Source: Chloroflexota bacterium
GTDB taxonomy: Bacteria; Chloroflexota; Anaerolineae; Aggregatilineales; UBA3940
Assembly: GCA_036679085.1 (NCBI GenBank)
Contig: JAZIGM010000048.1
Span: 12,002 to 76,001 of the forward strand
Direction: 5' to 3'
DNA: 64,000 nucleotides
The notes under the pieces were generated by a model, which searched no databases, was not told where the DNA came from, and saw only the letters and a list, made by a program, of their open reading frames with translations. Within the stretch, counting starts at the first letter, position 1, and the number at the start of each line of letters is the position of its first letter. This document shows positions 1 to 28,651 of this stretch, piece by piece. The position numbers and the translations under genes are program-made.

Positions 1-1323
1 CCGCACATGGAAGGGGACCTGCGTGCTCGTGCGGATGACGAGCCGGTCGTCCTCGTCCCACCACGTCATGGCGATGTGCGGCTCGATGGGCGCCTGCTGC
101 ACCTTTGGGCTGTAGTACGTGTCCTCGAAGATGTAGTCCGCCTGCGCAAAGCCCGCCTCGACATCGCCAAGCTCCCAGTCGATCACCGCGGCGAGGTTGC
201 GATTGCGGTCCTCGATGTTCCAGCTTTCTTCCTCGTCGTGGATGATCGGCGCGCCCGGCTTCATCGCCTCACGCGGATCGAAGATCGCCGGCAGCACCTC
301 GTACTCCACTTCGATGAGGTCGAGCGCCCGCTGCGCGATCTCCTCGGTTTCGGCGGCGACGGCGGCGACGCGGTCGCCCACCCAGCGCACCTTGTAGTCC
401 AGGCTGTAGTTATCGTGCGGGCCCGGCTCCGGGTGCGACTGGCCCGCCGTCGTATAGGGGACGCGCGGCAGGTCTTTGTACGTCAGCACCGCGTGCACGC
501 CCGGCAACTCGCGGGCCTTGCTCACGTCGATGTTCTTGATCAGCGCGTGCGCGTGCGGGCTCCAGAGGATCTTCGCGACAAGCATCCCCCGGTGCTCGAT
601 GTCGTCGGTGAAGGCGGGCTTGCCCTGCACCAGCTTCAGCGCATCGACTTTGGGCTCCGGCTTGCCGACGTAATCCCGCGCCCGCTCCTCGCTCACGACC
701 ATCGTCGGCATCGGCGTGGTCTTGACGACCGTGCCGCCGTCGGCGGTGGGCACAGCCGGGGGCTCCTCCTGCTGGACGGGCTTGAACAGCCCCTCCGGCA
801 CAGGGACCGCCCCCTCCTGGAAGATGGGCGGGACTTCCTCGCCGCGCATGACTGCCGCCGCGCGGAGCACGGCCTGCACCGGTTTGAGATACCCGGTACA
901 GCGGCACAGCACGCCGCTCAGCGCCTCGCGGACCTCCGCCTCGGTCGGGTTGGGGTTCTCCTCAAGCAGCGCCTTGGCCGCCATGATCATGCCGGGCGTG
1001 CAGTACCCGCACTGGATGGCGCCCGTCTCGACAAACGCTTCCTGCAGGGCATGGAGCGGCTCGCTGCCGCGCCAGCCGCGCTGCTGCTGCCCGCCGACGC
1101 CCTCAATCGTCTCGACTTCGTGGCCCTCCACCTGGGCCGCCAGCATGACGCACGTGCTCACCGGCTTGCCATCGAGCAGCACCGTGCACGCGCCGCACTC
1201 GCCCGTCTCGCAGCCGTGCTTCACGCCGACGACGCCGTTCTCGCGCAGCACGTCGAGCAGCGTCTGGCTGGGGCGAGCGTCAAATGTCACATTCTCGCCG
1301 TTTAGCCTGAAGGTGATGTTCAT
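1..1323 (-). CDS. Xanthine dehydrogenase/aldehyde oxidoreductase family protein: fused N-terminal 2x[2Fe-2S] domains plus molybdopterin-binding large subunit (XdhD-like). N-terminal 441 codons only; runs off the left edge.
   Basis: Absent from the ORF track because it has no stop in the window. My minus-strand translation from ATG at 1323 reads MNITFRLNGENVTF..GCETGECGACTV..CGYCTPGMIMAAKALL.., followed by a hammerhead-like domain. The start overlaps the upstream stop (ATGA). Confidence 0.8.
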   Translation of the reverse strand, partial: MNITFRLNGENVTFDARPSQTLLDVLRENGVVGVKHGCETGECGACTVLLDGKPVSTCVMLAAQVEGHEVETIEGVGGQQQRGWRGSEPLHALQEAFVETGAIQCGYCTPGMIMAAKALLEENPNPTEAEVREALSGVLCRCTGYLKPVQAVLRAAAVMRGEEVPPIFQEGAVPVPEGLFKPVQQEEPPAVPTADGGTVVKTTPMPTMVVSEERARDYVGKPEPKVDALKLVQGKPAFTDDIEHRGMLVAKILWSPHAHALIKNIDVSKARELPGVHAVLTYKDLPRVPYTTAGQSHPEPGPHDNYSLDYKVRWVGDRVAAVAAETEEIAQRALDLIEVEYEVLPAIFDPREAMKPGAPIIHDEEESWNIEDRNRNLAAVIDWELGDVEAGFAQADYIFEDTYYSPKVQQAPIEPHIAMTWWDEDDRLVIRTSTQVPFHVR

Positions 1324-2165
1324 GATGCTGTCCCGCCTTCCGCCTCAGTCTCATACCCGATTCGTGCCAGTGCCGCCGACAGCGCGCGCCGGGCCACCAC
1401 CGGGGCAATCGCCAGGCGATAGTCCGGGCGGCCCAGGTAGTCCGACTTCACATCTGCCGGGTTGATGTCTGCTGTCAGCGCGTCCAGCCCGGAGAGGTCC
1501 GGCCACTGAATGTCGAAGTCGAGCAGCTTCAGGCCGCTTGCCAGCAGCCCGCCGACCGCCACGCGGGCGGAAAGCGTGCCGCTCTCGACCTCCCGCACGA
1601 CCGCAGCCGCGCTCACAATCGGCTGATCAACCGGGGTCCGCGCCACCTGCTCGTAGGCCGTGCCGACCTTGCCTTCGGCCAGGCGCAGCTCGACGGCGGT
1701 GATGAGGCGGCCCTGCAAGCCTCCGGCAGGCACGCCCGGCCAGGGGATCAGCTCATCCTGCCCGGTGACGGCCATCTCCGCGCCGAGCGCGGCCAGCGCC
1801 ACCCCGAGCGGGCTATCAACTTTGCCGGCAGCCAGCGTGCCGCCGATTGTCGCAACGTTGCGGATGTTCCAGCCGGCCATGCGGTGAGCGGCTTCCGCCA
1901 GCAGCCCGCCAAACGCATCGCCAAGCTGCTCGACGATCGTCTGCAGCCGCACCATTGCGCCCAGCCGCAGCACGCCGTCTTCCGTGTGAATGGTATCCAG
2001 CCCGAGTTCCGATAAGTCTACCACCGCCTCGACGTCGGGGTTGCGCTGCCCGACCAGGTCCGTCCCGCCTGCGAGCGGCACGGTGCGGATCTCCGGGCGC
2101 TGCAGGAGCCGTAGCGCCTCGTCAAGATCGCGCGGGCGATGGTATTCGCGCAGATTGTATAACAT
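1320..2165 (-). CDS. Molybdopterin-dehydrogenase FAD-binding subunit (CoxM/XdhB/YgfM-like)
   Basis: 281-aa ORF. MLYNLREYHRPRDLDEALRLL..VPLAGGTDLV matches the FAD-binding subunit pattern. Translationally coupled to the Fe-S/Mo subunit gene. Confidence 0.85.
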   Translation of the reverse strand: MLYNLREYHRPRDLDEALRLLQRPEIRTVPLAGGTDLVGQRNPDVEAVVDLSELGLDTIHTEDGVLRLGAMVRLQTIVEQLGDAFGGLLAEAAHRMAGWNIRNVATIGGTLAAGKVDSPLGVALAALGAEMAVTGQDELIPWPGVPAGGLQGRLITAVELRLAEGKVGTAYEQVARTPVDQPIVSAAAVVREVESGTLSARVAVGGLLASGLKLLDFDIQWPDLSGLDALTADINPADVKSDYLGRPDYRLAIAPVVARRALSAALARIGYETEAEGGTAS

Positions 2166-2276
2166 CTGTGACCTTCCTTGCTGTCACTGCTCAGCACCGT
2201 GATGCACAGGCTCAACCTGAGTGTAGCGTGTGGTCACCCCTTCCGGCCTGAGAGATAGGTATGGCATAAAACCGGG

Positions 2277-2837
2277 TCAGTCATGGGCCGCAGCCAGCTC
2301 CTCGTCCGAATAGACCCGCCAGCCGAGACGTTCTAGATCAGAATCAGATAGAGCGCCGCTGCCCGGCATCTCGACAAGCGTAACGTCAGCCTCCGCCGCA
2401 ACCGTGCCGTCGGGCAGGCGCAGTTCGCTGTGCGCCTGTACGATCCGGCCCCGGTCTTTCAACAGGCGTCCGATGAGTGTGAGTTCGGTGTTGGTGGGAA
2501 CCGGCTGCCGGTAGCGAACGTTCAGCTTGCCGGTGAACATGAAGCGGTTGGGGTTGGAGATCATCGGGGTGCGCCCGGCAATCTCGTCGAGCAGCGCCGC
2601 CACGATACCGCCATGCACAACGCCGGGATATCCCTGGTATGCCTCAGGCGCGGTGTAGCGTGCGCGCACCTCGTCCCTGCCGTTGTCCTCAAAGCTCACC
2701 TTGAGGCCGACGGGGCTCTCCAGCCCGCACACAAAGCAGTGGCGGGAGTTTGGCTGCCGGGTCCGCTCGTCGTGCTGATGCTCGGACTGGCTCACGGGGC
2801 ATACCTCGGCACTAGGGTGGGGTGAACCCCTCCCCAT
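2277..2837 (-). CDS. PaaI/hotdog-fold thioesterase; start codon uncertain
   Basis: 186-aa ORF with CFVCG..GLKV and GVVHGGIVAALLDE motifs typical of PaaI-type thioesterases. The N-terminal ~25 aa may not be translated. Confidence 0.65.
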   Translation of the reverse strand: MGRGSPHPSAEVCPVSQSEHQHDERTRQPNSRHCFVCGLESPVGLKVSFEDNGRDEVRARYTAPEAYQGYPGVVHGGIVAALLDEIAGRTPMISNPNRFMFTGKLNVRYRQPVPTNTELTLIGRLLKDRGRIVQAHSELRLPDGTVAAEADVTLVEMPGSGALSDSDLERLGWRVYSDEELAAAHD

Positions 2838-2954: not shown

Positions 2955-3953
2955 CTAGTTGACGGCGAACGCGTCGATCATGTACTTGACGTCCGGGCCA
3001 AGCGGGTACAGGATCGGGCAGGTGCAGCCGTTGTCGATGTACTCCTGCACCTTCGCGCGGCACTCCTCGGGCGAACCGGCGGCGGCAACCATCTGCACCA
3101 TCTCGTCGGGCACCAGCTCCATCGCCGACTCGATCTCTTCCTCGGTGGCGGGCCAGCCCAGCCGCGACTTGATTTCGTTGACCAGCGAGGCATCTGCGCC
3201 GAGCGCCTTGGCGAAGTGCGGCTGCTGCGCGAGATACTGCGTCACCATCTTCTTTGCGCCGTCCAGCCCGCGGCGGCGATCCGGGTCCATCGAGCACACG
3301 ACAAGCTGCGGGCGGTCGATCTCATCGATGCTGCGGCCTGCCCGCTTGGCACCGGCCTCGATCCGGTCCATCGCCTCAAGGTTGTACTCCGGCTTGACGA
3401 GGTAGTTAAGCACCACGCCATCCGCGATCTCGCCGCTCAGTTCCAGCATCTTGGGGCCGGTCGCGCCGATGTAGATCGGCACGTTGCGCGGACCGGTGTT
3501 GCCGTGTACCACATCCAGCTTGATGCCACGCACCTGCACGAACTCGCCCTCGAACGTCACCGTCTCTGCATTTAGCAGGCGGCGCACCACCTCGACCACC
3601 TCACGCATGGCCTGCAGCGGCTTGGTGCGCTGGATGCCGACATTGGAGGCAAGCGGGTCCCACCAGGCGCCGATGCCGCAGATAACGCGGTCGGGGGCCA
3701 GGTCGTCAAGGGTCAGGAAGGTAGCGGCGATCAGGGCGGCGTTGCGCGTCCAGTTGTTGATCACGCCGGAGCCAACCTTGATGCGCTCCGTGCAGGCGGC
3801 GAAGGCGGCCATCGGCACGATGGCATCGCGGACCAGGCGCGACTCTGCCTGCCATACCGCCTCGAAGCCCTTCTCCTCGGCATACTTCACATACTCAATG
3901 CCGTCGCGAATGGGGTGGGCATCCTGGAGATACAGTGCTACTCGGTCAATCAC
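2955..3953 (-). CDS. LLM-class (luciferase-like) F420-dependent oxidoreductase
   Basis: 332 aa. The N-terminus (..[23 protein letters not shown]..) and overall TIM-barrel pattern resemble Mer/LLM F420-dependent enzymes. Last gene of the F420 operon. Confidence 0.75.
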
Positions 3954-4007: not shown

Positions 4008-4646
4008 CTAGACACTCACCAGCCAGCCCGGCTCATGCAGCTCGCGTTCGATCAGCATCTCGCGGTACAGATCCAGGTCGGCAGGGACGTCAACGTCAAG
4101 GCCGAGGGTTGGCGACTGGTACACGTACACGTCGGCACCCGCCGCCTCCGCAGCCGCACGGTGCTTTTCCAGACTGCCCTCGCCGAACTCGTACGGGAAC
4201 AGCCCCGGCGGCTTGATTAACATGGCATTGGTACCCTCTACCCGCCGGTCCGTGCCGATGACGACCACCGGCGGGTGTTTGGCCATGGCGACCATGTTCT
4301 CGATGTCCTCCGGCTGCAGCAGCGGAATGTCAGAGGCGATGAGCAGCACGCCGCTGACGTTCATCCGCATCACAACCTGAGTCGCCATGGTCAGGCTTGC
4401 GTTCAACTCGGGCGCGCCGCTCTCCTGCAGCGTCTGCGCGCCGAGCTGCCGGGCCAGCGACAGCGCGGCGCTGTCGCGGCTGACGACCATGGTACCCTTG
4501 ATGCTCTCGACCATGTTAAGGGTACGCAGGGTGCGTTCCAGCATTTCCCGGCTTAAAGACTCTCGTTGTTTGATATCCAGAACGGATGATAACCGACTTT
4601 TCGAACGGTTGAGTGGTTTGATTGGCACAATAGCCCAGATGCTCAC
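4008..4646 (-). CDS. cofC: 2-phospho-L-lactate (or PEP) guanylyltransferase CofC/FbiD
   Basis: 212 aa. IWAIVPIKPLNRSKSRL is the characteristic CofC N-terminus. 4-bp overlap with cofD. Confidence 0.8.
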   Translation of the reverse strand: MSIWAIVPIKPLNRSKSRLSSVLDIKQRESLSREMLERTLRTLNMVESIKGTMVVSRDSAALSLARQLGAQTLQESGAPELNASLTMATQVVMRMNVSGVLLIASDIPLLQPEDIENMVAMAKHPPVVVIGTDRRVEGTNAMLIKPPGLFPYEFGEGSLEKHRAAAEAAGADVYVYQSPTLGLDVDVPADLDLYREMLIERELHEPGWLVSV

Positions 4647-5593
4647 AGTTGATCTTCCTCTACCCAGTCCAAGAGGGCGATTGCGAGGTCTACTTTGTTG
4701 TCTAGCGTTTGCATGAGTGTCCGCCGCGCTGTGACCTTGACGCCCAGCGCTTCTATCGGGGCGAGCAAATCTCTATCGGCCTCGTCCAGTATAAACCCAT
4801 CCACCAGTTCTCGATAGTGCTGCACAACGCCGAGCGGGGAGATATCCACGCCCAGTTCGGACATCAATTTGGCCGTCGGGCCTTTGACCGCCTGCCCCGC
4901 AATAATGGGTGTCACGGCGATGCGCGGTACGCGCGCCCCGGCGATCCGCTGGCGGATACCGGGGATCGACAGGATGGGGTCGATGCTCAAAAACGGGTTG
5001 GACGGCCCGAACACAATCAGGGTTGCCGAGTCAAGCGCCTCGGCGACAGCCGGGCTCGGCTGCGCTGCCTCGCAGCCCTCAAAACGAATACGGTGGACCA
5101 CCGGCTGCCAGCGCTCCCGCACGAAATACTCCTGGAAGCCCAGGCTGCCCCGGTCCGTTTCTAATACGGTGCGGACCGCATCATCCGACATCGGCAGCAG
5201 CGTCGGGCCAACGCCGAGCGCCCGGCTCAACTGCCGCGTAATCTCGGTGAGCGTCCTGCCCTGGCGCAGCAGCGCGGTCCGCACCAGGCTGGTGCCGAGG
5301 TCGGCGTCGCCGAGGTTGAACCACGTCGGCCCGCCGTACCGCTCGACCATCTCCATCGCGCGGAAGGTGTCCCCTGCGAGGCCCCAGCCAAACTGCGGGT
5401 TCGCCACGCCGGCGAGCGTGTACATCAGCGTGTCCACATCCGGGGAGATGTGCAGACCCAGATGCTCGAAGTCGTCGGCGGTGTTGACGATCACCGTCAG
5501 CGACTCAGGCGGGAGCACATGGGCCAGCCCCAGGGCCAGCTTCGCCCCGCCGACCCCACCGACAAGCAGCACAACACGGTCGCGGACGCTCAT
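4643..5593 (-). CDS. cofD: 2-phospho-L-lactate transferase CofD/FbiA
   Basis: 316 aa. LVGGVGGAKLALGL..NTADDFEHLGLHISPDVDT are CofD hallmark motifs. Confidence 0.9.
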   Translation of the reverse strand: MSVRDRVVLLVGGVGGAKLALGLAHVLPPESLTVIVNTADDFEHLGLHISPDVDTLMYTLAGVANPQFGWGLAGDTFRAMEMVERYGGPTWFNLGDADLGTSLVRTALLRQGRTLTEITRQLSRALGVGPTLLPMSDDAVRTVLETDRGSLGFQEYFVRERWQPVVHRIRFEGCEAAQPSPAVAEALDSATLIVFGPSNPFLSIDPILSIPGIRQRIAGARVPRIAVTPIIAGQAVKGPTAKLMSELGVDISPLGVVQHYRELVDGFILDEADRDLLAPIEALGVKVTARRTLMQTLDNKVDLAIALLDWVEEDQL

Positions 5594-6213
5594 CGGAACA
5601 CCACCCTCGTCTCAAGTGGCTCGCGGGACCTGGTGCGCTCCTCTGCCGGGTAGCCGAGCGCGATCACGCCCTGCGGCTCGTAGTCAGGCGGCAGGTCGAG
5701 CGCTTCCCGCACCGCCGCCTGACAGAACAGGGGCGCACACATCCACACCGCACCCAGCCCCTCGGCGTGCGCGGCAAGCAGGAGGTTCTGGGCAGCCATG
5801 GCGACACCCTGTACCGCCATCTGGTGCTCGAAGGACTGCCGCCGCTCGTCAGGGTAAGTGTCCATGTCGGCCATCGTCAGGCACACGACGACCAGCGCGC
5901 CCGCGCCGGTCAGCCGCTGGCGGGAGCGGCCTGTATCCTTCGCGATAGCCTCCTCGGAAACACCATCCGCGCGGAGATCGGCTGCAAGCTGCGCGGCCAT
6001 TGTGTCGGCCAGCAGCCGCTTGCTTGCCTCGCTCTCCAGCACGACGAAGCGCCACGGCTGGCGGTTGTGCGCAGAGGGCGCCCACGTCGCCGCGTCGAGC
6101 AGGCGCAGCAGCACCTCGCGCGGCACCGGGCGTGGCTCAAACCGGCGGATCGAGCGCCGCGTATAGATCGCGTGGTACAGGTTTTCTGCCGTAATTTGTC
6201 CCGTCGATTCCAC
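5590..6213 (-). CDS. Nitroreductase-fold protein resembling the FbiB C-terminal domain (candidate dehydro-F420-0 reductase)
   Basis: 207 aa. RRSIRRF..APSAHNRQPWRF is the nitroreductase signature. Lies between cofE and cofD with a 4-bp overlap onto cofD. Confidence 0.7.
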   Translation of the reverse strand: MESTGQITAENLYHAIYTRRSIRRFEPRPVPREVLLRLLDAATWAPSAHNRQPWRFVVLESEASKRLLADTMAAQLAADLRADGVSEEAIAKDTGRSRQRLTGAGALVVVCLTMADMDTYPDERRQSFEHQMAVQGVAMAAQNLLLAAHAEGLGAVWMCAPLFCQAAVREALDLPPDYEPQGVIALGYPAEERTRSREPLETRVVFR

Positions 6214-6271: not shown

Positions 6272-7033
6272 CTACCGGTACAAATCCATCTCACGCGGGC
6301 GCACGAGGTCGGCGGCGCTCGCCTCCTCGTCGGCGGGGTACGTCAGGCCGCGCACAATCACAACCGGCATACCCTCTGCCGCCTGCCCCTGCACCAGCCC
6401 GGCAGCAGCGGCGATCTCATCCGCGAAGCCGACCTCCGTCACCTGCAGTGCCTCGCCGAACAGGTCCGGGCGGCCTCGCATATCCCACAGGGCGGGCAGC
6501 CCGGCGGCGCCAATCGCCACGCCGACCGTGCCCATGCGGAAGGGGCGTCCGTGACTGTCGCTGATGATGACCGCCACCGTCACCCCGAAATGTTCGTTGA
6601 GCGCCGCACGCAGCTCCCGCGCGGAGCGGTCCGGGTTCTCAGGCAGCAGCAGCCGCCACTCGCCGTCCGCCCGCGTGTTGGAGTGGTCCATCCCGGCATT
6701 CGCGCAGACAAAGCCCAGCCGGTGCTCGGCGATGAGCACGCCGCGCCGCATGCGCGAAATACCGGCGGATTCGCTCAGGATGAGCGCGACCTCACGCGGG
6801 TCTTTGCCGACCTCGGCGGCGATGCGCCGCGCCTCCTCGTCCGGCTCGACGGTCGCCAGGTCCACCCAGCGCCCCTCTGCCTTCGAGACGATCTTCGAGG
6901 TCACGACGACGACGTCGCCATCCACGAGGGTCTGGCCGCTCGCCTTGAGCGCCCCGGCGATGATGGCGGCCAGGTCATCCCCCGTTTCGATGAGGGGGAT
7001 GCCCGGCACGCCGATGAGCTGCAACTGCGTCAT
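6272..7033 (-). CDS. cofE: Coenzyme F420-0:L-glutamate ligase CofE
   Basis: 253 aa. [29 protein letters not shown] are CofE motifs. Confidence 0.9.
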
Positions 7034-7036
7034 GAA

Positions 7037-7720
7037 CTAACCGATCCCGGTGATGCGGATGCCGGCGCTCTTCACCTTATAGCGCTTGTTCACGCCGATG
7101 AGCAGCGCGGTCAGGCTCTCAGCGACGATAGCGTTCGCCAGAGGCCCGGCGTCAATGCCGCGTGTGCCCACCGCTTCGACGAGCTTGATGACTTCCTGCC
7201 GGGCTTCCTCGTCGTCGCCGGTCACGAGCACATCGCAGTCAACTTCATGATCCAGATGGTTGAGGTGCACCGCCGATACATTCTGGAAGGCGGACACCAC
7301 GCGCACGCCCTCGCCGAGGAAGGCCTGCGCTTCCTCCGCCGCCGTACGACCTTCAGGCAGCGAAACGACCCACACCGGCGGGGAGAGCGGGACGGTCACA
7401 TCGACGAGGATCTTCCCCTGCACCTCGTTGTACACGCTCTCCAGCGTCGGTCGGTGCGCCGAGTAGGGCACGGAGAGCACGACAATGTCGGCTTCGCGCG
7501 CGGCGTCCGGGTTCGTCATCCCGCGCACGACGTCCTTGCCCAGTTTTTCGTTTAGCTCTGCTGCGGCCCGCTCCGCCTTTTCCTGCTGGCGCGAGCCGAT
7601 GATCACATTGTAACCCTGATGCGCCCAGCGTAAAGCCAGCCCACCACCTTCACTACCGGTTCCGCCAAGCACAGCGATGGTGGGAAGATTGTTGTTCTCT
7701 GGCACGGTGTTGTACTCCAA
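7037..7720 (-). CDS. fno: NADPH-dependent F420 reductase (Fno/NpdG)
   Basis: 227 aa. IAVLGGTGSEGGGLALRWA Rossmann motif of the NpdG family. The track start is TTG; a GTG 15 nt downstream preceded by GGAG is an alternative start. Confidence 0.85.
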   Translation of the reverse strand: MEYNTVPENNNLPTIAVLGGTGSEGGGLALRWAHQGYNVIIGSRQQEKAERAAAELNEKLGKDVVRGMTNPDAAREADIVVLSVPYSAHRPTLESVYNEVQGKILVDVTVPLSPPVWVVSLPEGRTAAEEAQAFLGEGVRVVSAFQNVSAVHLNHLDHEVDCDVLVTGDDEEARQEVIKLVEAVGTRGIDAGPLANAIVAESLTALLIGVNKRYKVKSAGIRITGIG

Positions 7721-7779
7721 TCTGTTGTCGAAGCTCTTGTGTCTGTCGCTAGTTGCAGATGTTCACGCCAGGGACTGTG

Positions 7780-20429: not shown

Positions 20430-21413
20430 TTAGCGCATCGTCAGGGCCATGACGGCCTTCTGCACGTGCAGACGGTTCTCCGCCTGGTCATAGACGATGC
20501 TCTGTGGGCCTTCGAGCACGCCGGTCGTCACCTCGATGTCGCGGTCCGCCGGAAGCGGGTGCATGTAGTAGCCAGCCCCGTCACGGGTCAGGGCCATACG
20601 CCGCTCGTCGGCGATCCAGTCCGTGTACTTCTGGCTGATCCGAGCCGACTCTGCCTCGTCGGTCGTGGTCAGCATCGCGCCCCAGGACTTGGCGTACACC
20701 ACGTCTGCACCCTTGAAGCCCTCATCGAAGTCCTCGAGGATCTCGAAGCTGCCGCCGCTCTCGCGAGCGTTGAGCGCCGCCTGCTCCTCAATCTCGGGGA
20801 TCAGCTTGAATTCGGGCGGACGGGTCAGGCGGACGTTCATGCCGAAGCGCGTCGCCAGCAGGATCAGGCTCTGCGGCACGGACAGCGGCTTCTGGTAGCT
20901 CGACGCGTACGCGTACGAGACGTTGAGCACCTTGCCGCGCAGGTCACGCCCAAAGCGCTCGATCATGGTCATCAGGTCGGCAAGCGCCTGGAAGGGGTGG
21001 TAGTAGTCGCACTGCATGTTCAGCACCGGGACGCGGCTGTACTTCGCGACCTCGCGAAGATACTGGTTGCCCTCACCCCAGTCGCAGTGGCGGATAGCAA
21101 TACCATCGGCGTAGCGCCCGACGATCTCACCGATCTCCCTGCCGGTGTCGCCGTGGTGGATCTGCGTCGTCTTGCTGTCGATGAACATGGCATGCCCGCC
21201 GAGCTGGGCCATACCCGTCTCGAAGCTGGTGCGGGTGCGCGTGCTCGAGAAGAAGAACAGCAGCGCCAGCACCTTGTCGCGCAGCAGCGCGTGCGACTCG
21301 CCGAGTGCGCGGCGCCGCTTCAGGTCAAAGGCCACGTCCAGAACCGTCTCCAGCTCTTCCTTCGTCCATTCCTGGGTCGTGATCATGTCACGGCCAGCCA
21401 AGTACGTCTGCAT
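20430..21413 (-). CDS. ygeW: YgeW-like (knotted) carbamoyltransferase
   Basis: 327 aa. Has STRTR, NMQCDYYHPFQALADL, YQKPLSVPQS..TRFGMNV and GGSFEI..GADVVYAKSW blocks that parallel remembered E. coli YgeW. Shorter than YgeW at both ends. Confidence 0.8.
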   Translation of the reverse strand: MQTYLAGRDMITTQEWTKEELETVLDVAFDLKRRRALGESHALLRDKVLALLFFFSSTRTRTSFETGMAQLGGHAMFIDSKTTQIHHGDTGREIGEIVGRYADGIAIRHCDWGEGNQYLREVAKYSRVPVLNMQCDYYHPFQALADLMTMIERFGRDLRGKVLNVSYAYASSYQKPLSVPQSLILLATRFGMNVRLTRPPEFKLIPEIEEQAALNARESGGSFEILEDFDEGFKGADVVYAKSWGAMLTTTDEAESARISQKYTDWIADERRMALTRDGAGYYMHPLPADRDIEVTTGVLEGPQSIVYDQAENRLHVQKAVMALTMR

Positions 21414-21490
21414 AGTCGCTCAGATCTCCTTCAATTTTAGATTTTGAAAACTCGACACAAGTACGGTTAGCGCAGGTCGCCCCATGAGGG

Positions 21491-21559
21491 GAGCGAGCCC
21501 ACAGATAACACCGACTGCACCGGTGAATACCCGTGTCATCTGTGAAACCGGTGGGCTCA
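21491..21559. repeat. Nested inverted repeats with 9-nt CAC periodicity in the ygeY/ygeW-like intergenic region
   Basis: Outer helix is gagcccac..gtgggctc and inner helix is cacagat..atctgtg. Units cacagataa/caccgactg/caccggtga were read directly. Confidence 0.6.
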
Positions 21560-21609
21560 GGCGTCCCCTCTAGAGCAACTGCGTCATTCCCTGATTAATC
21601 GATAACGGG

Positions 21610-22812
21610 CTATTTCTTCGGCAGGAACGCCGGAAGCAGCGCGTACCACTCGGTGGCGCGCACCACGTCATCCAGCGGAACCTGATCCAGCACGGAGTGG
21701 GCGTAGATCTCATCGCCCGGGCCAAAGCCGATGCTCGGGATGCCGGCCTTGCCCATCCAGAAGCAGCCGTTTGTCGAGAAGTCCCACTTGCCGGTCGGCA
21801 GAGGCTCGCCCCACAGGGCCGCGCCCGCCTGCACGCCCGCCTGCACGTAGGGATCGTCCTCCGGCAGCAGCCATGCCGGGTAATACTTCTCCAGCGGGAA
21901 GACGAACCCGGTGTAGCTCGGCGTATCGTAGATCAGGATCTCGGCGGTAATATCATCGCGGTCACCGATGATCCGCTGGATGCGCTCAAGCTCGGCCTTG
22001 TAGTCCTCGCCGTAGGTCAGGCGACGGTCGATGTAGATCGTCGCCTCGTCGGGCACGGCGTTGATGCTGGGCGTCTGCACTTCCATGTCCGTCACCGTGA
22101 TGCGGCCAGGGCCCAGGAACTCGTGGTCGCCCAGCTCCGGTTCCAGCTTGCTGATCGCGTCGATGATCGGCACGAGCTTGTAGATCGCGTTGTCGCCCAG
22201 GTAGTTGCTGGCCGCGTGCGCGCTCTTGCCCTTCGCCACGACCTTCATCTCAACCCGGCCCTTGTGGCCACGGTAGACCTGCATCTTGGTCGGCTCGCCG
22301 ATCACGACGAAGTCCGGCCTGAGGCCCTCGTGCTCGACCAGCGCGTGCGGGGCGATACCGTCGTTCCACTCCTCCATGTTGCCGAAGTAGTAGCCGGTGA
22401 TGCCTTCCAGCAGGCCAAGCTCCTTGGCGAGTGCCAGCCCGTAGACCATGCCCGGCGTGCTGCCCTTCTCGTCGCAGGCACCGCGCGCGTAGAGAATACC
22501 GTTCTCAACCTTGCCCTCGAACGGGTCCCACTCCCACTCATCCGGGTCGCCGATGCCGACGGTGTCGATGTGGCTGTCATACAGCAGCTTGGTCGGGCCA
22601 TCGCCGATGCGCCCGACGACGTTGCCCATCGAGTCCCACCAGACTTCGTCGAAGCCCAGCTTCTTCATTTCGGCTTCAATGCGCTCGCCGACCTCGCGAA
22701 TCTCGCTCTCCATGCTGGGGATCGCCACGATCTCGCGCATGAACTGGATGATGTCCTCGCGCTGCTCCGCTACCCGGCTCTTGATCTTGTCGATGATGGA
22801 TTGGTCAACCAT
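21610..22812 (-). CDS. ygeY: YgeY-family M20 peptidase/deacylase (selenium-metabolism-associated hydrolase family)
   Basis: 400 aa. IPSMESEIREVG..LYDSHIDTVG..YARGACDEKG are M20 metal-site motifs in the YgeY arrangement. Confidence 0.85.
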   Translation of the reverse strand: MVDQSIIDKIKSRVAEQREDIIQFMREIVAIPSMESEIREVGERIEAEMKKLGFDEVWWDSMGNVVGRIGDGPTKLLYDSHIDTVGIGDPDEWEWDPFEGKVENGILYARGACDEKGSTPGMVYGLALAKELGLLEGITGYYFGNMEEWNDGIAPHALVEHEGLRPDFVVIGEPTKMQVYRGHKGRVEMKVVAKGKSAHAASNYLGDNAIYKLVPIIDAISKLEPELGDHEFLGPGRITVTDMEVQTPSINAVPDEATIYIDRRLTYGEDYKAELERIQRIIGDRDDITAEILIYDTPSYTGFVFPLEKYYPAWLLPEDDPYVQAGVQAGAALWGEPLPTGKWDFSTNGCFWMGKAGIPSIGFGPGDEIYAHSVLDQVPLDDVVRATEWYALLPAFLPKK

Positions 22813-22889: not shown

Positions 22890-24599
22890 TCAACCGACAA
22901 AGAGATCGACTTGCTCAAATGTCTCCACATCCACCAACCCTTGATCGGTCAGCTTCAGGGAGGGGATAACTTCCAGAGCCATGAAGCTCATAGCCATGTA
23001 CGGATCATGCAGCGGGGACCCCAGCTCTCTGGCCGCGTTGAGCAAATTATCCATCCCTGCCCGTACTTCGCCAATCGGCGCCTCGCTCATGAGGCCCGCG
23101 ACTGGCAGCGGCAGCGCTGCGAGCACCTGCGTGCCATCAACAGCGACCAGCCCACCCCCGATCCGCGCCACTTCGCGCGCAGCCGTCATCATACTCTCGT
23201 CGTCTGCACCGATGACGACCAGGTTGTGGTGGTCATGCGCGACCGTCCCGGCGATCGCGCCGCGTTTCAGGCCGATCCCCTGGATAAAACCCTTGCCGAT
23301 GTTGCCCGTCGCGCGGTGCCGCTCGATGACAGCCATCTTGAGGATGTCCCGCTCAACGTCGGCAACCGCACAGCCATCCACCTGCTTCACGTCGAGAATG
23401 CGGTGCTCGGTCACGAGTTGATCCGGGATGCTGCCGATCACCCGCGCCCGCGTGCCGTTCGCCGGGATGGTGAAGTCGACCGCGTCCCAGTCGATGTTCA
23501 TCGTGTTGCGAAGCTGGATCGGGCGGCGAACCTCCTCCAGGGGAAGCATCTTGCCGTTTTCAGCGACCCTGTACCCGCCCCGGTATACGATCTCCGGAAC
23601 CGGGTTGTACAGGTCGGAGAAGATGAACAGGTCCGCCCGGCGGCCTATCGTAATCGCGCCCCGATCGTGCAGGCCGAAGTACCGCGCCGTGTTGATCGTG
23701 CCCATCTGGATGGCGCGCACCGGGTCGATGCCGTGCTGGATAGCCACACGCACCATGTAGTCAATCGAGCCCTGGTCGAGCAGGTCGGCGGGCTGGCGGT
23801 CGTCGGTGCAGAAGCAGATGTGGTGGCTGTTCTCCGGCGTGACGAGCGGCAGCAGCGCCTCCAGGTTGCGCGCGTTGGTCGCCTCGCGGATGAAGATCGT
23901 CATACCGAGGCGCAGCTTTTCCCGCGCCTCCTCGACGGTCGTACACTCGTGGTCGGAGCGCACGCCTGCCGCCACATAAGCGTTGAGCGCCTTACCCGTC
24001 AGGCCGGGGGCGTGCCCGTCGATCACGGAGCCTTCAAACGCCTCCAGCTTGTCTAGCACCAGCTTGTCGCCCATGATGACGCCGGGGTAATTCATCACCT
24101 CGGCCAGGCCAATCACCCAGTCGTTGTTCAGCAGATGCCGGATATCGTCCGCTTCCAGGTTGGCCCCGGCGGTCGCCATGTGTGTGGAGGGCACACAGGA
24201 GGAGGCCATCACATACATGCTGAGCGAGCCGTATTTGGCCTGCTCCAGCATAAAGCTGATGCCCTCCAGCCCGAGCACGTTGGCGATCTCGTGCGGGTCA
24301 GTCACAACCGACGTGACCCCGCGCGGCAGAACGGCCTTCGCGAACTCGCGGGGGGTGCACATCGAGCTTTCAATATGGACGTGCGCGTCGATGTAGCCCG
24401 GCGCGACGTACTTGCCATCTAGGTCGATAACCTGCTCCGCCTCGTACCCGTCGCCCAGCCCGACAATCCGCGAGCGGCGGATGGCAATGTCGGTGAGGTA
24501 CACCTCGCCGGTGAACACGTTCACCAGATTCGCGTTCTTGAGCAGCACGGCTGCCGGCTTGTCGCCCCGCGCAATCCGGATGAGCTTTTCGCGTTCCAT
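22890..24599 (-). CDS. ade: Adenine deaminase
   Basis: 569 aa. APGYIDAHVHIESSM..VVTDPHEIANV is the Ade signature. Confidence 0.9.
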   Translation of the reverse strand: MEREKLIRIARGDKPAAVLLKNANLVNVFTGEVYLTDIAIRRSRIVGLGDGYEAEQVIDLDGKYVAPGYIDAHVHIESSMCTPREFAKAVLPRGVTSVVTDPHEIANVLGLEGISFMLEQAKYGSLSMYVMASSCVPSTHMATAGANLEADDIRHLLNNDWVIGLAEVMNYPGVIMGDKLVLDKLEAFEGSVIDGHAPGLTGKALNAYVAAGVRSDHECTTVEEAREKLRLGMTIFIREATNARNLEALLPLVTPENSHHICFCTDDRQPADLLDQGSIDYMVRVAIQHGIDPVRAIQMGTINTARYFGLHDRGAITIGRRADLFIFSDLYNPVPEIVYRGGYRVAENGKMLPLEEVRRPIQLRNTMNIDWDAVDFTIPANGTRARVIGSIPDQLVTEHRILDVKQVDGCAVADVERDILKMAVIERHRATGNIGKGFIQGIGLKRGAIAGTVAHDHHNLVVIGADDESMMTAAREVARIGGGLVAVDGTQVLAALPLPVAGLMSEAPIGEVRAGMDNLLNAARELGSPLHDPYMAMSFMALEVIPSLKLTDQGLVDVETFEQVDLFVG

Positions 24600-24608: not shown

Positions 24609-25994
24609 CTATTCCCTCATTGAGCCAGGCTCAAACGGAGCGCCGGGGATGAACTGCCCGCGCCCGGTTTCGGCGGTGATTTCACCGCCCTGGTACACAA
24701 TCTCGCCGCGCGAGATCGTCGTATGGACCTCGCCCTTGACCCTGAAGCCCTCGTACGGGCTGTACCCGGCGAGGTAGTGCAGGTCCTCATGCCGGATTGT
24801 CTTTTCGACGGACGGGTCGTAGAGCACGATGTCGGCGTCGCTACCCTCGCGCAGGAAGCCCTTGCGCGGCGCGATGCCGAACAGCCGGGCGGGGGTCTCG
24901 CACATCATCCGCACCATGTCGGTCAGCTCGATGCGCCCGCCGTCCACGCCGTAGGTGTACATCAGCGGGAGCAGCGTCTCGATGCCCGGCAGGCCGCCCG
25001 GCGTCTGGGTGAAGGTCTCGTACTCCTCCTTCTGCTGGATGGTGTAATCGCAGCTATCGGTCGAGATCACATCGACCGCGCCCCGGCTGACAAGCTCCCA
25101 CAGCTTTTCCGGCTCGCCGACGCCCCGGATGGGCGGCTGCAGGATGTAGTGCTGCGGTTTTTCGCCCTCGTAGACGCGGTCGTCAAGCAGCAGGTACTGC
25201 GGGCACGTCTCGCACCAGGCCGCGACGCCCCTGCCCACAGCCTCCCGCACCAGTTCAACGCTGCGCGCCGTCGAGCAGTGGACGATATACACCGGCGCAT
25301 CCGCCGCTTCGGCGAGGAACAGCACGCGGTGGATCGCCTCCTGCTCCGCGATAGCGGGCCGCGCCATCGCGTGGTAGCGCCACGCCGTGCGCCCCGAGCG
25401 GACAAGCTGCTCGGTCTCCTCGGTGACGATGGCGTCGTTCTCGGCATGCACAACGACAAGCCCGCCGATCCGGGCGGACTGTTTCAGCAGGCGCAGCAGC
25501 GTCGCATCGTCCATGTAGTAGTTCGGGCGGTAGGTCGTGTAGACCTTGAAGCTCGGAACGCCCAGCTCGACGAGGGTCTCAAGCTCAGGCTCCCGCCCTG
25601 GAGGGAACTCCGTGATCATGCAGTGGAGGGCGTAATCGACAACGGCCACGCTCGCCTCGTCCTTGCGGTTGGCGATGGCCTCCTCGAAGGTCTCGCCGGG
25701 GAACTGCGTGGCGAAGTCAATCACGGTCGTTACGCCACCGGCGGCGGCGGTGCGCGTGCCGATCAGCCAGTCGTCAGCGGTCTGGTAGATGCCCGTATTA
25801 AGCTGGATGTGCGTGTGTGCATCGATGATGCCCGGCAGCACCAGCAGCCCGGAGGCGTCGATCACCCGGTCATTCGGCCCGGGTTGGATGGAGTCGGCGA
25901 CCTCGGAGATAGTCTGGTCCTCGAATGCGACATCGGCCTGCCATACCTTCTCGGCGCTGACGACCGTGCCGCTCTTGATGATGGTCCGTGTCAT
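24609..25994 (-). CDS. hyuA: D-hydantoinase/dihydropyrimidinase family cyclic amidohydrolase (HyuA/YgeZ-like)
   Basis: 461 aa. LPGIIDAHTHIQL..AAAGGVTTVIDF. Confidence 0.8.
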   Translation of the reverse strand: MTRTIIKSGTVVSAEKVWQADVAFEDQTISEVADSIQPGPNDRVIDASGLLVLPGIIDAHTHIQLNTGIYQTADDWLIGTRTAAAGGVTTVIDFATQFPGETFEEAIANRKDEASVAVVDYALHCMITEFPPGREPELETLVELGVPSFKVYTTYRPNYYMDDATLLRLLKQSARIGGLVVVHAENDAIVTEETEQLVRSGRTAWRYHAMARPAIAEQEAIHRVLFLAEAADAPVYIVHCSTARSVELVREAVGRGVAAWCETCPQYLLLDDRVYEGEKPQHYILQPPIRGVGEPEKLWELVSRGAVDVISTDSCDYTIQQKEEYETFTQTPGGLPGIETLLPLMYTYGVDGGRIELTDMVRMMCETPARLFGIAPRKGFLREGSDADIVLYDPSVEKTIRHEDLHYLAGYSPYEGFRVKGEVHTTISRGEIVYQGGEITAETGRGQFIPGAPFEPGSMRE

Positions 25995-26016: not shown

Positions 26017-27384
26017 CTACTTGCTCTGAGGGATAGGCTCCTTGTTGATCAGCGCGCGCGAGATCTGGTTGTGACGCTCGATTACCGGCCCGAGGTCGAT
26101 GGTCGTTAGCTGGCCTTCCTTGACCACCACGCGCCCGTTAATCATCGAGAAATCGACGCCGAGCGGCGCACAGAGCACCGTCGCCGCGACGGGGTCGTGT
26201 AGCGCGCCCGCGTACTCAACGCGGTTCAGGTCGATGGCGATCAGGTCCGCCGACATGCCCGGCGCCAGCGCGCCGATGTCGTCACGGCGCAGCACGCTCG
26301 CGCCGCCCAGTGTCGCCATCTCAAGGGCCTGACGGGCGCTGAACACCTCCGGCCCGTGCTGCACGCGCTGGAGCAGCATCGCCTGCCGCGCCTCGCCGAG
26401 CATGTGCCCGCCATCGTTGCTGGCGGAGCCATCCACACCGAGGCCCACGCGCACGCCATGCGCGCGGTACGCCAGGATCGGCGCGACGCCGGAGCCGAGG
26501 CGCATGTTGCTGTTCGGGCAGTGCGCCACGCCGGTGTCCGTCTCGGCGAACAGCTTGACTTCCTCGTCGTTTACAAAGACCGAGTGCGCGTGCCACACGT
26601 GATCGCCCATCCAGCCCAGGTCCTGCATGTACTCGACGGGCCGCCGCCCGAACGTCTCCAGGCAGAACTGCTCCTCATCGAGCGTTTCGGCGAGGTGGGT
26701 GTGCAGCAGCACGTCGTACTCCTGCGCCATCTTAACCGACTCGCGCATCAAATCCGGCGTGACGGAGAACGGCGAGCACGGCGCAAGCACGATGCGCAGC
26801 ATCGAGTGCCGCGAGGGATCGTGGTACGTCTCGATAGCGCGCTGGCTGTCCCGCAGAATGTCTTCCTCTTTCTCGACCACGCTGTCGGGCGGCAGCCCAC
26901 CCTGCGACTCGCCCAGGCTCATCGAGCCGCGCGCCGCATGGAAGCGCATCCCGATCTCCTGCGCCGCGCGGATCTCGTCGTCGATGCGGGCGTCGTTCGG
27001 GTAGATGTACAGGTGGTCGCTCGATGTGGTGCAGCCGCTGAGGATCAGTTCGGCCATCGCCGTGAGCGCGGAGATGTACACCGCCTCACTCGTCAGCCCT
27101 GCCCAGATGGGGTACAGGGTTTTCAGCCAGTTAAACAGGTTGGAGTCCTGCGCCATCGCCCGCGTGAGGGTCTGGTACATGTGGTGGTGGGTGTTGACCA
27201 TCCCCGGCATGACGATGTGGCCGCTCAGGTCGATGATCTCGTCCGCTTCCGACGGCAGTTCGCTCGTCGGCCCGACCTGCTCGATGACGTTGTCTCGGAT
27301 GAACACCCCGCCGTCGGAGATTTCGCGGCGGTCGCGGTCCATGGTGACCAGCGTGTGCGCGTGGCGCACAAGGACGGTGCCCAT
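26017..27384 (-). CDS. Amidohydrolase of the guanine/8-oxoguanine deaminase-chlorohydrolase subgroup
   Basis: 455 aa. MPGMVNTHHHMYQTLTR..CTTSSDH..HLAET motifs. Confidence 0.75.
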   Translation of the reverse strand: MGTVLVRHAHTLVTMDRDRREISDGGVFIRDNVIEQVGPTSELPSEADEIIDLSGHIVMPGMVNTHHHMYQTLTRAMAQDSNLFNWLKTLYPIWAGLTSEAVYISALTAMAELILSGCTTSSDHLYIYPNDARIDDEIRAAQEIGMRFHAARGSMSLGESQGGLPPDSVVEKEEDILRDSQRAIETYHDPSRHSMLRIVLAPCSPFSVTPDLMRESVKMAQEYDVLLHTHLAETLDEEQFCLETFGRRPVEYMQDLGWMGDHVWHAHSVFVNDEEVKLFAETDTGVAHCPNSNMRLGSGVAPILAYRAHGVRVGLGVDGSASNDGGHMLGEARQAMLLQRVQHGPEVFSARQALEMATLGGASVLRRDDIGALAPGMSADLIAIDLNRVEYAGALHDPVAATVLCAPLGVDFSMINGRVVVKEGQLTTIDLGPVIERHNQISRALINKEPIPQSK

Positions 27385-27678
27385 TAGCAGCAGCTCCTTG
27401 CAGACTGTTGGGGGTGATGAGTTGGCTCTAAGCGACTCAATGTGACCTGCGAGCCGTGTCCGCGTGGCTCGCGGTTGTGGTTCCGGTCTGCCTCAAAAAA
27501 AGGTGCCTCAAAGGGCAGGGAAAGCCCCCTGCTCATATCTGATAGGTCCTCTTCAGGTATCCGGGGAATGAAGCAGGATGCCCGGCTAGATGCTCTAGGC
27601 TCGCTATTGGCTCTATGTTACCCGCCGTTGCCAGAAGTGCAAACTTATGTCAGGTGTTCCACCATGTCATTTGTCTCA

Positions 27679-27722
27679 GCCCTCCCCCGGCAGTGCCCCA
27701 GTGAGATTGCCAGGGGGAGGGC
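27679..27722. repeat. Long GC-tract hairpin (gccctcccccggca / tgccagggggagggc) 20 nt downstream of the folD stop
   Basis: Inverted repeat read directly. No U-tract follows on the minus strand. Confidence 0.6.
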
Positions 27723-27742
27723 CGTTACATGGTCTGGCTGTG

Positions 27743-28651
27743 TCAGGCAGGCTGGCTCTTCTTGATCGCCAGTTCCGCACCGTGCAGCGTGTTCTTGAGC
27801 AGCATGGCGATGGTCATCGGGCCGACGCCGCCGGGGACGGGCGTGATAGCGGCGGCACGCTCCTTGGCCGCCTCGAACTCGAAGTCGCCCTTCCACACGT
27901 AGCCCTTCGGCGCGTTCGGATCCTCGACCTTGACGGTTGCCACGTCGATCAGCACCGCGCCAGGCTTAATCCACTCGCCCTTGATCATCTCCGGGCGGCC
28001 CATCGCACCGACCACGATGTCTGCGTTAGCCAGCGCCGCGGGGATGTCCTTCGTGCGGCTGTGGCAGACCGTCACCGTGGCATTGGCCTGGATCAGCAGC
28101 AGCGCCATCGGCATGCCGACGATATTGCTGCGGCCCAGCACCACTGCGTTCGAGCCGGCGATCTTGAAGCCCTCGACCAACTGCTCGGCGCGCTGCAGCA
28201 GCACCATGCAGCCGTAGGGCGTCGCGGGGATGAACTCGGGCTCGCGGCCCTTCATCGCGAGGCGGCCAATATTCTCCGGGTGGAAGCCGTCTACGTCCTT
28301 GTCGATGCTGATGGCCTTGAGCACGGCTTCCTCGTCGAGGTGGTCAGGGAGCGGAAGCTGTACCAGAATGCCGTGTACCTTCGGGTCGCTGTTGAGATCG
28401 GCAATGACCTTCTCAAGCTCTTCCTGCGTAATGTCGCCGGGGAGTTCGTGCAGGAAGGAGTCGATCCCCACCTCAGCGCAGCGGTTGCGCTTCATCTTCA
28501 CGTACATCTGGGATGCGGGGTTATCGCCGACGAGCACCGCAGCCAGTCCGGGCGTAATGCCGTGCTCATCCTTCATGCGCTGCACGGCATCCGCAACTTC
28601 CTGCTGGACCTCTGCCGCGATGGCTTTGCCGTCAAGAACGATTGCTGTCAC
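27743..28651 (-). CDS. folD: Bifunctional 5,10-methylene-THF dehydrogenase/methenyl-THF cyclohydrolase FolD
   Basis: 302 aa. LVGDNPASQMYVKMK..HGILVQLPLP. GTG start preceded by GGAGG. Confidence 0.9.
   Translation of the reverse strand: MTAIVLDGKAIAAEVQQEVADAVQRMKDEHGITPGLAAVLVGDNPASQMYVKMKRNRCAEVGIDSFLHELPGDITQEELEKVIADLNSDPKVHGILVQLPLPDHLDEEAVLKAISIDKDVDGFHPENIGRLAMKGREPEFIPATPYGCMVLLQRAEQLVEGFKIAGSNAVVLGRSNIVGMPMALLLIQANATVTVCHSRTKDIPAALANADIVVGAMGRPEMIKGEWIKPGAVLIDVATVKVEDPNAPKGYVWKGDFEFEAAKERAAAITPVPGGVGPMTIAMLLKNTLHGAELAIKKSQPA

Follow-up and report, generated by a model that had tools for sequence, protein, structure and literature searches.

How might 2,8-dioxopurine be dearomatised in a bacterium whose genes resemble the anaerobic urate cluster of Escherichia coli but do not include YgfK, the enzyme known for this step? 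The question is raised by a stretch of 64,000 nucleotides (the window in what follows) from a Chloroflexota bacterium of the Aggregatilineales (contig JAZIGM010000048.1, positions 12,002 to 76,001, forward strand), which begins with a long run of minus-strand genes. With a probability of about 65%, this cluster would encode, in an Aggregatilineales population, a variant of the reductive pathway of urate degradation through 2,8-dioxopurine ('yanthine'), in which a luciferase-family hydride transferase (LLM), reduced coenzyme F420 (F420H2) and the NADPH-dependent F420 reductase Fno would take the place of YgfK.

All steps of the urate pathway in E. coli and Clostridium sporogenes were assigned by two studies published in 2025 (PMC12507026; bioRxiv 10.1101/2025.04.24.650524), so that the statement in an earlier interpretation of this DNA, made from its letters only (the sequence-only reading), that several steps are biochemically unassigned is outdated. 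According to these studies, urate is reduced to 2,8-dioxopurine by XdhD-YgfM (DOPDH), 2,3-diureidopropionate arises when HyuA opens the second ring, YgeW and YqeA yield ATP, YgeY removes the other ureido group, and YgeX forms pyruvate and ammonia. The dearomatisation of 2,8-dioxopurine by YgfK (DOPOR) needs coupling to ring opening by SsnA (PMC12507026).

The run consists of 25 consecutive minus-strand open reading frames (ORFs), from position 28651 down to position 1. All of them showed coding-type GC by codon position, with GC3 values of 0.73-0.90 in a genome of 65% GC, and the long plus-strand ORFs overlying them showed an antisense-shadow pattern (GC1 0.82-0.92). Overlaps were found at 6 of the 24 junctions: five were 4-bp ATGA overlaps (YgfM/XdhD, CofD/CofC, FbiE/CofD, the two ABC permeases, and the ATPase with the first permease), and one, between a pyridoxal-phosphate (PLP) enzyme and the gene termed orf229, was a 1-bp overlap with the public gene start. 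The sequence-only reading had described just such a run from folD to position 1 with overlaps of 1-4 bp and five amidohydrolase paralogues within 22 kb, and had likened it to the ygeW-xdhD locus in a Chloroflexi-like background. These descriptions held: the five amidohydrolase-superfamily genes span 22.1 kb (8051-30156), and the cluster is a relative of the E. coli one in an Aggregatilineales genome.

The XdhD-like gene is cut by the window edge at position 1. Contigs of the same population (L082, L083, L087 and L088; 99.4-99.8% identical over 13.95 kb) showed that the run goes on for at least 9 kb past this point on the same strand, with six complete genes following the full-length XdhD gene. 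The cluster therefore has no fewer than 31 genes and extends over at least 37 kb, most of it inside the window, and the remainder of the window holds housekeeping genes. The LLM and ten other window proteins were identical to proteins of Aggregatilineales (Anaerolineae, Chloroflexota) metagenome-assembled genomes (MAGs) on many contigs.

For comparison, 80 related SsnA loci were used, nearly all from Chloroflexota and a few under other phylum labels, mostly Acidobacteriota. The same gene order recurred in dozens of other Anaerolineae MAG species, so the co-localisation is not due to chance. Three blocks kept their order in other species, namely HyuA-YgeY-carbamoyltransferase-carbamate kinase, PLP-glycosyltransferase-PLP-orf229-SsnA, and Fno...LLM-hotdog-YgfM-XdhD.

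Seven of the nine families of the E. coli urate pathway were present in the window, with identities to the E. coli proteins of 35-49% (29% for YgfM). SsnA (8051-9472, minus strand like all genes of the cluster) exceeded the curated cut-offs of both its models (NF005540, 534.5 > 444; TIGR03314, 517.3 > 455.5); it was 36% identical to E. coli SsnA, carries the public name SsnA, and its likely start is at 9418, giving 455 aa. The D-hydantoinase/dihydropyrimidinase equivalent to HyuA (24609-25994; TIGR02033, 467.4 > 393.25; 40% identity), the YgeY-family M20 hydrolase (21610-22812; TIGR03526, 470.3 > 321.5; 41% identity) and the carbamate kinase equivalent to YqeA (19438-20391; TIGR00746, 386.6 > 358.25; 49% identity) passed likewise. 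The same was true of two enzymes that may feed the pathway, an adenine deaminase (22890-24599; TIGR01178, 629 > 472.5) and an 8-oxoguanine deaminase-type amidohydrolase (26017-27384; NF006055, 709.5 > 532; public name 8-oxoguanine deaminase), the product of which would be urate. All six had been named in the sequence-only reading, and the profile search it called for thus bore these names out. The dihydroorotase-like gene (28675/28867-30156), considered as a fifth amidohydrolase of the pathway, was rejected: it passes a PyrC domain model (362 > 279), is divergently oriented and is probably a housekeeping gene.

Between 2955 and 7720 lie six genes that the sequence-only reading overlooked and that are the defining difference from the E. 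coli cluster. They encode Fno/NpdG (7037-7720; TIGR01915, 233.7 > 149.8; 222 aa in the public call), the F420:gamma-glutamyl ligase CofE (6272-7033; TIGR01916, 295.3 > 180.7), a stand-alone nitroreductase resembling the FbiB C-terminal part or FbiE (5590-6213), the phospholactate/enolpyruvyl transferase CofD/FbiA (4643-5593; TIGR01819, 298.6 > 257.5), the guanylyltransferase CofC/FbiD (4008-4646; TIGR03552, 161 > 105), and the Mer-like F420-type LLM (2955-3953). The block is likely a substitute for YgfK, and models of YgfK or PydA type found no match among the 25 ORFs. The nitroreductase matched the C-terminal part of PRK13294 and TIGR03553 at 158-166 bits, under the cut-offs of both, and is a probable dehydro-F420-0 reductase; stand-alone FbiE proteins reducing dehydro-F420-0 are known in Chloroflexi (PMC8498797). 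A role of this protein as the purine reductase was considered and set aside, since its best matches and its place between cofD and cofE fit dehydro-F420 reduction.

The 16 best NCBIfam matches of the LLM were all F420-type LLM families, and families using FMN followed at E values of 1e-11 or weaker. In a Foldseek search of the PDB with its AF2 model (pLDDT 87.7), the top 30 matches were all F420 enzymes, FMN enzymes appearing only from rank 31, and the model superposed on F420-bound Mer with TM scores of 0.85-0.87.

Across the 80 loci, Fno stood beside SsnA in 64 and CofE in 66. An F420-type LLM of any kind was found in 59 of them, 35 with the type present in the window and 25 with a TIGR03560-type protein (264 > 231), one locus having both; the TIGR03560-type gene is divergently transcribed just upstream of SsnA.

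Further features of the related loci were recorded. SsnA-Fno-CofE occurs together with a conserved ORF of about 400 aa, which has no family, in non-purine neighbourhoods of some other Chloroflexota families (L011, L061). At L061, a TIGR03560-type LLM, unrelated to the type of the window (8451-9374, minus strand), lies divergently upstream of SsnA-Fno-CofE, and the ORF is at 12782-13990 (plus strand). At L011 (10031-14188), SsnA-Fno-CofE stands among Lon, methylmalonyl-CoA mutase and PBP genes. In some relatives, the region between LLM or YgfM and XdhD holds a large ORF of 864-923 aa (L033, 16162-18771; L020, 16650-19244; L004, 17600-20371); no family was matched by that of L033, compared with Pfam and NCBIfam, or by that of L004, compared with NCBIfam alone. 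Close homologues of the LLM are labelled '5,10-methylenetetrahydromethanopterin reductase' in public data (JGI), which is probably misleading in this context.

The molybdenum enzyme was also analysed. Of an XdhD-like fused [2Fe-2S]/molybdopterin subunit, the window contains the first 441 aa (1-1323; domains Fer2, Fer2_2, Ald_Xan_dh_C and MoCoBD_1); the best NCBIfam match of this part was TIGR03313, and it was 35% identical to E. coli XdhD. The full-length protein of the same population has 989 aa and was identical at 440 of these 441 positions. It shows the fused architecture of XdhD and a loop, lacking in XdhA, with a Glu aligned to E606 of XdhD, the residue singled out by Li et al. (PMC12507026). 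The YgfM-like FAD-binding subunit (1320-2165; PF00941) overlaps the XdhD gene by 4 bp.

Past the window edge, XdhD is followed by a 284-aa XdhC/CoxI factor, which shares 37% identity with E. coli YqeB over the N-terminal half of the latter, and then by an operon for a second enzyme of xanthine-dehydrogenase type (13958-20846 on contig L088, with the XdhC-like factor ahead). This operon encodes a 479-aa FAD/Fe-S subunit and a 737-aa pucD-like molybdenum subunit, with a 118-aa membrane ORF and a DUF6909 protein (576 aa) inserted between them, and one further ORF follows.

The sequence-only reading had listed ygeX, ygfK, yqeB and yqeC as not seen, and tblastn of the window confirmed this. Neither YqeB, YqeC nor SelD was found in the 64 kb, and YqeC and MocA had no tblastn match in the window or the 80 loci. 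For yqeB the statement is true of the window, but the factor resembling its N-terminal half lies just past the edge, and partial tblastn matches to YqeB were found after XdhD in four loci.

The carbamoyltransferase next to the carbamate kinase (20430-21413; 327 aa) is related to both YgeW and N-acetylornithine carbamoyltransferase (AOTCase). Its scores stayed below those required by models of ornithine carbamoyltransferase (OTCase; PRK00779, 253 < 306; TIGR00658, 248 < 281) and of YgeW (NF005538, 215 < 453; TIGR03316, 202 < 500), and its identity was 41% with the Xanthomonas AOTCase, 37% with YgeW and 33% with ArgI. The motifs QCDxxHPxQ, SYxKPLSVPQ and LTRDG...YMHxLPAD are common to it and YgeW, the insertions and C-terminal extension of which are missing. 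OTCases bind ornithine through the motifs DxxxSMG and HCLP; the protein has KSWGA for SMG and HPLP for HCLP. On these results it is not YgeW in the strict sense, nor is it a genuine OTCase, and it was treated as a short YgeW-like enzyme presumed to do the same job. The name YgeW-like given to it in the sequence-only reading was not supported by the YgeW models, although several YgeW motifs are shared. The gap to the carbamate kinase gene is 38 bp, and in relatives the two genes were always neighbours inside SsnA clusters. An arginine deiminase pathway was considered for this pair and rejected, on account of the lack of an arginine deiminase and of the OTCase motifs and the constant occurrence of the pair in SsnA clusters. 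The public label 'ornithine carbamoyltransferase' for 20430-21413 is probably misleading here.

Two fold-type-II PLP enzymes, which the sequence-only reading left out together with the glycosyltransferase, the hotdog protein and the PUA-like ORF described below, stand where YgeX would be expected to have a counterpart. A tblastn search with YgeX in the window and the 80 loci returned only distant matches, to the gene of the first of them, a threonine-synthase-like (ThrC-like) protein (12746-14008; TIGR00260, 208.5 > 167.1). This protein scored poorly with the YgeX model (NF006058, 65 < 276) and was 25% identical to E. coli YgeX. In it, the Arg of NP[YH]R[LI]EG is replaced by Thr and the Thr of ASTGNT by Ala, residues which we take to bind phosphate in ThrC and which are both kept in three aligned ThrC proteins of solved structure. 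Of the 13 cluster orthologues, 12 have the Arg-to-Thr change and 9 have ASTGNA. With its substrate site altered in this way, the protein is a candidate diaminopropionate or beta-substituted-alanine lyase. The public label 'threonine synthase' for 12746-14008 is probably misleading as well. The second enzyme is CysK/CBS-like (10165-11583; 472 aa; PF00291); it scored 122 against the 351 required by cysteine synthase models, and its best PDB matches were cysteine synthases at about 100 bits. In all of the 17 loci that have its orthologue, the ThrC-like gene was present as a partner. One or both PLP enzymes probably replace YgeX, with diaminopropionate, albizziin or its isomer as candidate substrates.

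Uptake was attributed to an ABC system consisting of two permeases (14048-15067 and 15064-16161), an ATPase (16158-17816) and a BMP/PnrA-family substrate-binding lipoprotein (17933-19264; PF02608). The permeases and ATPase, joined by the 4-bp overlaps, matched NCBIfam components of sugar or B6 type below the cut-offs. The binding protein had only two relatives of solved structure, the Brucella Bmp protein 3s99 and AtzT (6pi5), and AtzT co-purified with guanine, a free base (PMC6834077). Its likely ligand, going by these relatives, is a purine base or nucleoside, and because of the guanine in AtzT a free base appears at least as likely as a nucleoside. The sequence-only reading was correct about the BMP family, and its choice of a nucleoside is unproven. 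In one close relative, a GPH-family cation symporter is inserted between orf229 and ssnA (L004, 8603-9970), and the ABC transporter genes of L005 were only 30-39% identical to those of the window; lineages thus apparently exchange their uptake systems.

Family memberships, gene order and conservation were observed directly, and from them we infer all substrates in the pathway, above all those of the LLM, the carbamoyltransferase and the PLP steps. Purines would be imported by the BMP-type ABC system. Adenine deaminase, with hypoxanthine as its feeder product, 8-oxoguanine deaminase and the second enzyme of xanthine-dehydrogenase type outside the window would funnel them to urate, from which the XdhD-like and YgfM-like subunits would remove the C6 oxygen to give 2,8-dioxopurine. 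The LLM would then transfer a hydride from F420H2 and dearomatise 2,8-dioxopurine, in place of the NAD(P)H-dependent Fe-S flavoprotein YgfK. Fno would recharge F420 from NADPH, and CofC, CofD, the FbiE-like protein and CofE would build the tail of the cofactor. SsnA would open the reduced ring, pulling the unfavourable reduction forward, and the hydantoinase would open the second ring to 2,3-diureidopropionate. Phosphorolysis of one ureido group by the short YgeW-like carbamoyltransferase, followed by carbamate kinase, would yield ATP, and YgeY would hydrolyse the other. Finally, one or both of the atypical PLP enzymes would turn the resulting diamino or ureido amino acid into pyruvate and ammonia.

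Several findings weigh against this pathway and are gathered here with the explanations that some of them would favour. With respect to the F420 block, the LLM remained below both Mer equivalog cut-offs (NF002619, 196.7 < 276; TIGR03555, 190.8 < 348.7), which means that it is not Mer, and the FbiE-like nitroreductase, best matched by FbiB C-terminal models, did not reach that of TIGR03553 (158 < 249.6). FO synthase (CofG/CofH or FbiC) was found neither in the window nor in the 9-kb extension and may be encoded elsewhere in the genome. In some Chloroflexota genomes SsnA-Fno-CofE occurs away from purine genes with no LLM within 10 kb (L011), so that the F420 link may bypass the LLM, or SsnA in those genomes may have another partner. 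Among the remaining enzymes, the full-length XdhD-like protein missed TIGR03313 (709 < 1102) and scored almost equally with XdhA_XDHase (700 < 780), TIGR03312 was the best model for the YgfM-like protein at only 66 < 241.5, and the carbamoyltransferase met no curated cut-off, that of AOTCase included (263 < 288). What the sequence-only reading called XdhD- and YgfM-like proteins thus fall short of the family cut-offs, with the fused architecture and the insertion carrying Glu606 retained. SelD and YqeC were absent from the window and the 9-kb extension. The presence of two PLP enzymes here against one in E. coli has no explanation, and no role in the pathway could be given to the glycosyltransferase, orf229 or the hotdog protein.

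The first alternative, which we consider unlikely, is that the urate pathway is real and the F420 block is a housekeeping operon that happens to lie nearby, with the LLM serving another substrate and the reductase encoded elsewhere. F420 synthesis is not self-contained in the cluster, about 330 bp separate SsnA from Fno, the LLM falls below all curated cut-offs, and the LLM-free SsnA-Fno-CofE groups in non-purine neighbourhoods would also be accommodated. However, the F420 genes are located inside the cluster, between SsnA and YgfM/XdhD, and not at its edge. SsnA and an LLM were also kept together at four loci where the F420 biosynthesis genes are missing (L043, L046, L063 and L069), adjacent to each other in L043 and L046 and in the compact order PLP-PLP-LLM-YgeY-carbamoyltransferase-carbamate kinase-SsnA...HyuA-YgfM-XdhD-XdhC in L069. 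Two different types of F420-LLM each stand beside SsnA, and tblastn with E. coli YgfK gave no match in the window or in any of the 80 loci.

A second explanation would place another N-heterocycle in the pathway, such as a different oxopurine, a pteridine, or hydantoins and dihydropyrimidines, degraded through analogous but distinct intermediates. A hydantoinase with an M20 hydrolase is the classical pair of hydantoin utilisation, the characterised E. coli enzymes are matched at no more than 29-49% identity, the XdhD-like protein scores equally with XdhA-type models, and neither the carbamoyltransferase nor the PLP enzymes are members of the subfamilies of YgeW and YgeX. Nevertheless, SsnA and YgeY pass equivalog-level models of urate-cluster families, the E606 loop of XdhD is kept, and the adenine and 8-oxoguanine deaminases, the purine-type BMP protein and the second xanthine dehydrogenase point to purines converging on urate. 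Degradation of a different heterocycle is accordingly judged quite improbable.

It is highly improbable that the 25 genes are unrelated operons sharing a strand with no functional unity: the known pathway has no place for FolD, the glycosyltransferase or orf229, hairpin-containing gaps of 110-360 bp divide the genes into four or more units, and the scans for promoters and terminators gave no more than chance, yet most blocks are found with unchanged order in other species and 7 of 9 E. coli pathway families are present.

The widest gaps in the run are those from FolD to the 8-oxoguanine deaminase (358 bp) and from SsnA to Fno (about 330-345 bp), followed by gaps of 196, 173 and about 115 bp. 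GC-rich hairpins without T-runs were observed directly 3' of the stop codons of FolD, YgeY, carbamate kinase, Bmp and LLM, in the gaps 27385-27742, 21414-21609, 19265-19437, 17817-17932 and 2838-2954, respectively. They may act in processing, in stability or as terminators, and the presence of such hairpins at the head of several gaps points to four or more transcription units. Nothing was found when the whole window was scanned with Rfam (at the gathering threshold) and for tRNAs, which ruled out a riboswitch or other RNA element as the cause of the long gaps. Scans for sigma-70 promoters and intrinsic terminators gave counts at the level of shuffled sequence. A perfect palindrome, TGTGATTATATCACA (7776-7790), occurs once in the window, where it overlaps a TGnTATAAT that resembles an extended -10 element upstream of Fno. 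It was the only candidate found for an operator shared across the intergenic regions, and it was seen in contigs of the same population and not in other species, so it was dropped as evidence of regulation. No dedicated regulator was found within the cluster. About 5 kb from it lie a stand-alone response regulator (32977-33546, minus strand) and a phosphoribosyltransferase possibly involved in purine salvage (33606-34184, minus strand).

FolD (27743-28651; 383 bits with FolD models, just below the subfamily cut-off) is probably a separate transcription unit outside the pathway, given the 358-bp gap with GC-rich hairpins that separates it from the next gene. A formiminotransferase-cyclodeaminase is encoded at 59344-60858 (minus strand). 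Formiminotransferase-cyclodeaminase and FolD, as tetrahydrofolate C1 enzymes, are part of the classical clostridial purine fermentation via formiminoglycine, and with both present here, one may ask whether there is a second purine route.

Three further proteins belong to the run. The family-2 glycosyltransferase (11669-12688; PF00535), PgfS/ArnC-like below the cut-off, has C-terminal membrane helices, with hydrophobic segments at 231-292. It was found in 12 loci and is missing from the compact clusters L069, L032 and L043, and for this reason is probably a lineage-specific passenger. The product of orf229 (9476-10165) gave no Pfam, NCBIfam or PDB sequence match. It has 3302 homologues, and its AF2 model (pLDDT 89) has a PUA-like (ASCH/YTH-like) N-terminal domain with weak Foldseek similarity (E about 2e-3) to McrB-N, ASCH and YTH domains, which read modified bases; this similarity was too weak for a function to be called from the fold. 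The orthologue of orf229 was present in 13 loci, always between a PLP gene and SsnA. A hotdog-fold (4HBT) protein (2277-2837; PF03061; 172 aa in the public call) was kept between LLM and YgfM, with orthologues in 14 related loci.

Compared with the E. coli cluster (ygeW-ygeX-ygeY-hyuA-yqeA...ygfK-ssnA-ygfM-xdhD), the window has SsnA, the hydantoinase, YgeY, carbamate kinase, a YgeW-related carbamoyltransferase and XdhD- and YgfM-like subunits in common, and the same logic of reduction, two ring openings and recovery of ATP from a ureido group. In contrast, YgfK is replaced in the gene inventory by the Mer-like LLM, Fno and genes of F420 tail biosynthesis, YgeX by two other PLP enzymes of fold type II, and YgeW by a 327-aa protein without its insertions. 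Neither YqeC nor MocA is found in the region, and YqeB is matched over its N-terminal half only, by the XdhC-like factor. In place of GuaD and the proton symporters there are two deaminases, for adenine and 8-oxoguanine, and an ABC importer.

The variants of Clostridioides difficile and C. sporogenes, with the PydA-like reductase UacX, the hydrolase UacY and XdhAC as DOPDH, likewise have swappable reductase and ureido-cleaving modules around a constant SsnA core. Their reductase is probably a ferredoxin-linked FMN enzyme, and C. difficile gives up the gain of ATP, whereas the window keeps carbamoyltransferase and carbamate kinase and, as proposed, would use a deazaflavin hydride carrier.

Enzymes of the LLM fold that use F420H2 dearomatise picrate by hydride addition (PMC8498797). 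In the Fht/Npd system of Rhodococcus and Nocardioides, as would be the case here, an LLM-fold enzyme adds hydride to an electron-poor ring as the first dearomatising step. According to what Heiss et al. reportedly described in 2002, these enzymes are paired with NpdG/Fno, which regenerates F420H2. The substrate there is a nitroaromatic xenobiotic and the hosts are Actinobacteria, and the likeness to the LLM of the window was assessed at the level of the fold family. Mer is the closest solved and curated relative of this LLM (28-32% identity) and has the same F420-binding TIM barrel, but the LLM differs in falling below both equivalog cut-offs, in its bacterial host and in its purine-catabolism context. 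The F420 genes themselves resemble the Chloroflexi-type set of Thermomicrobium roseum, with CofC/FbiD, CofD/FbiA, CofE and a separate nitroreductase like the FbiB C-terminus (PMC8498797); unlike there, they are embedded in a catabolic cluster, with no FO synthase nearby.

Taken as a whole, the sequence-only reading was partly supported: its interpretation was right in outline, the defining feature was missed and the biochemistry was out of date. A putative F420 reductase of family PF00296 had already been flagged in Chloroflexota SsnA neighbourhoods by Li et al. in 2025, in a network of family presence without anatomy or biochemistry (PMC12507026). F420 is not mentioned in the Dodd-lab preprint, and the word 'purine' is absent from a 2021 review of F420 (PMC8498797). 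What is added here is therefore not a first sighting, and its value lies in the detailed anatomy, the conservation counts and the testable assignments. In addition, the cluster puts right three names in public MAGs that are likely misannotations, namely 'ornithine carbamoyltransferase', 'threonine synthase' and 'methylene-H4MPT reductase'.

It was not until 2025 that the reductive urate pathway was solved, in gut bacteria, and the dearomatisation of 2,8-dioxopurine is its hardest step, for which the known enzymes are the NAD(P)H-dependent Fe-S enzyme YgfK and the probably ferredoxin-linked UacX. The chances are about even for the wider proposal that the LLM and Fno form an F420H2-dependent 2,8-dioxopurine reductase with a dedicated cofactor supply, that the PLP pair and the short carbamoyltransferase are new terminal enzymes, and that urate degradation is widespread in environmental Chloroflexota. 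If true, the deazaflavin version would be a third and mechanistically simpler solution, with direct hydride transfer and no Fe-S clusters, and would give coenzyme F420 its first role in purine catabolism. Provided that F420 is supplied, the LLM and Fno would perhaps be easier to express than YgfK in engineered urate-lowering strains. For the Anaerolineae, which are abundant and known here only from metagenome assemblies, it would suggest that they mineralise purines, and the breakdown of urate would extend beyond the bacteria of the gut.

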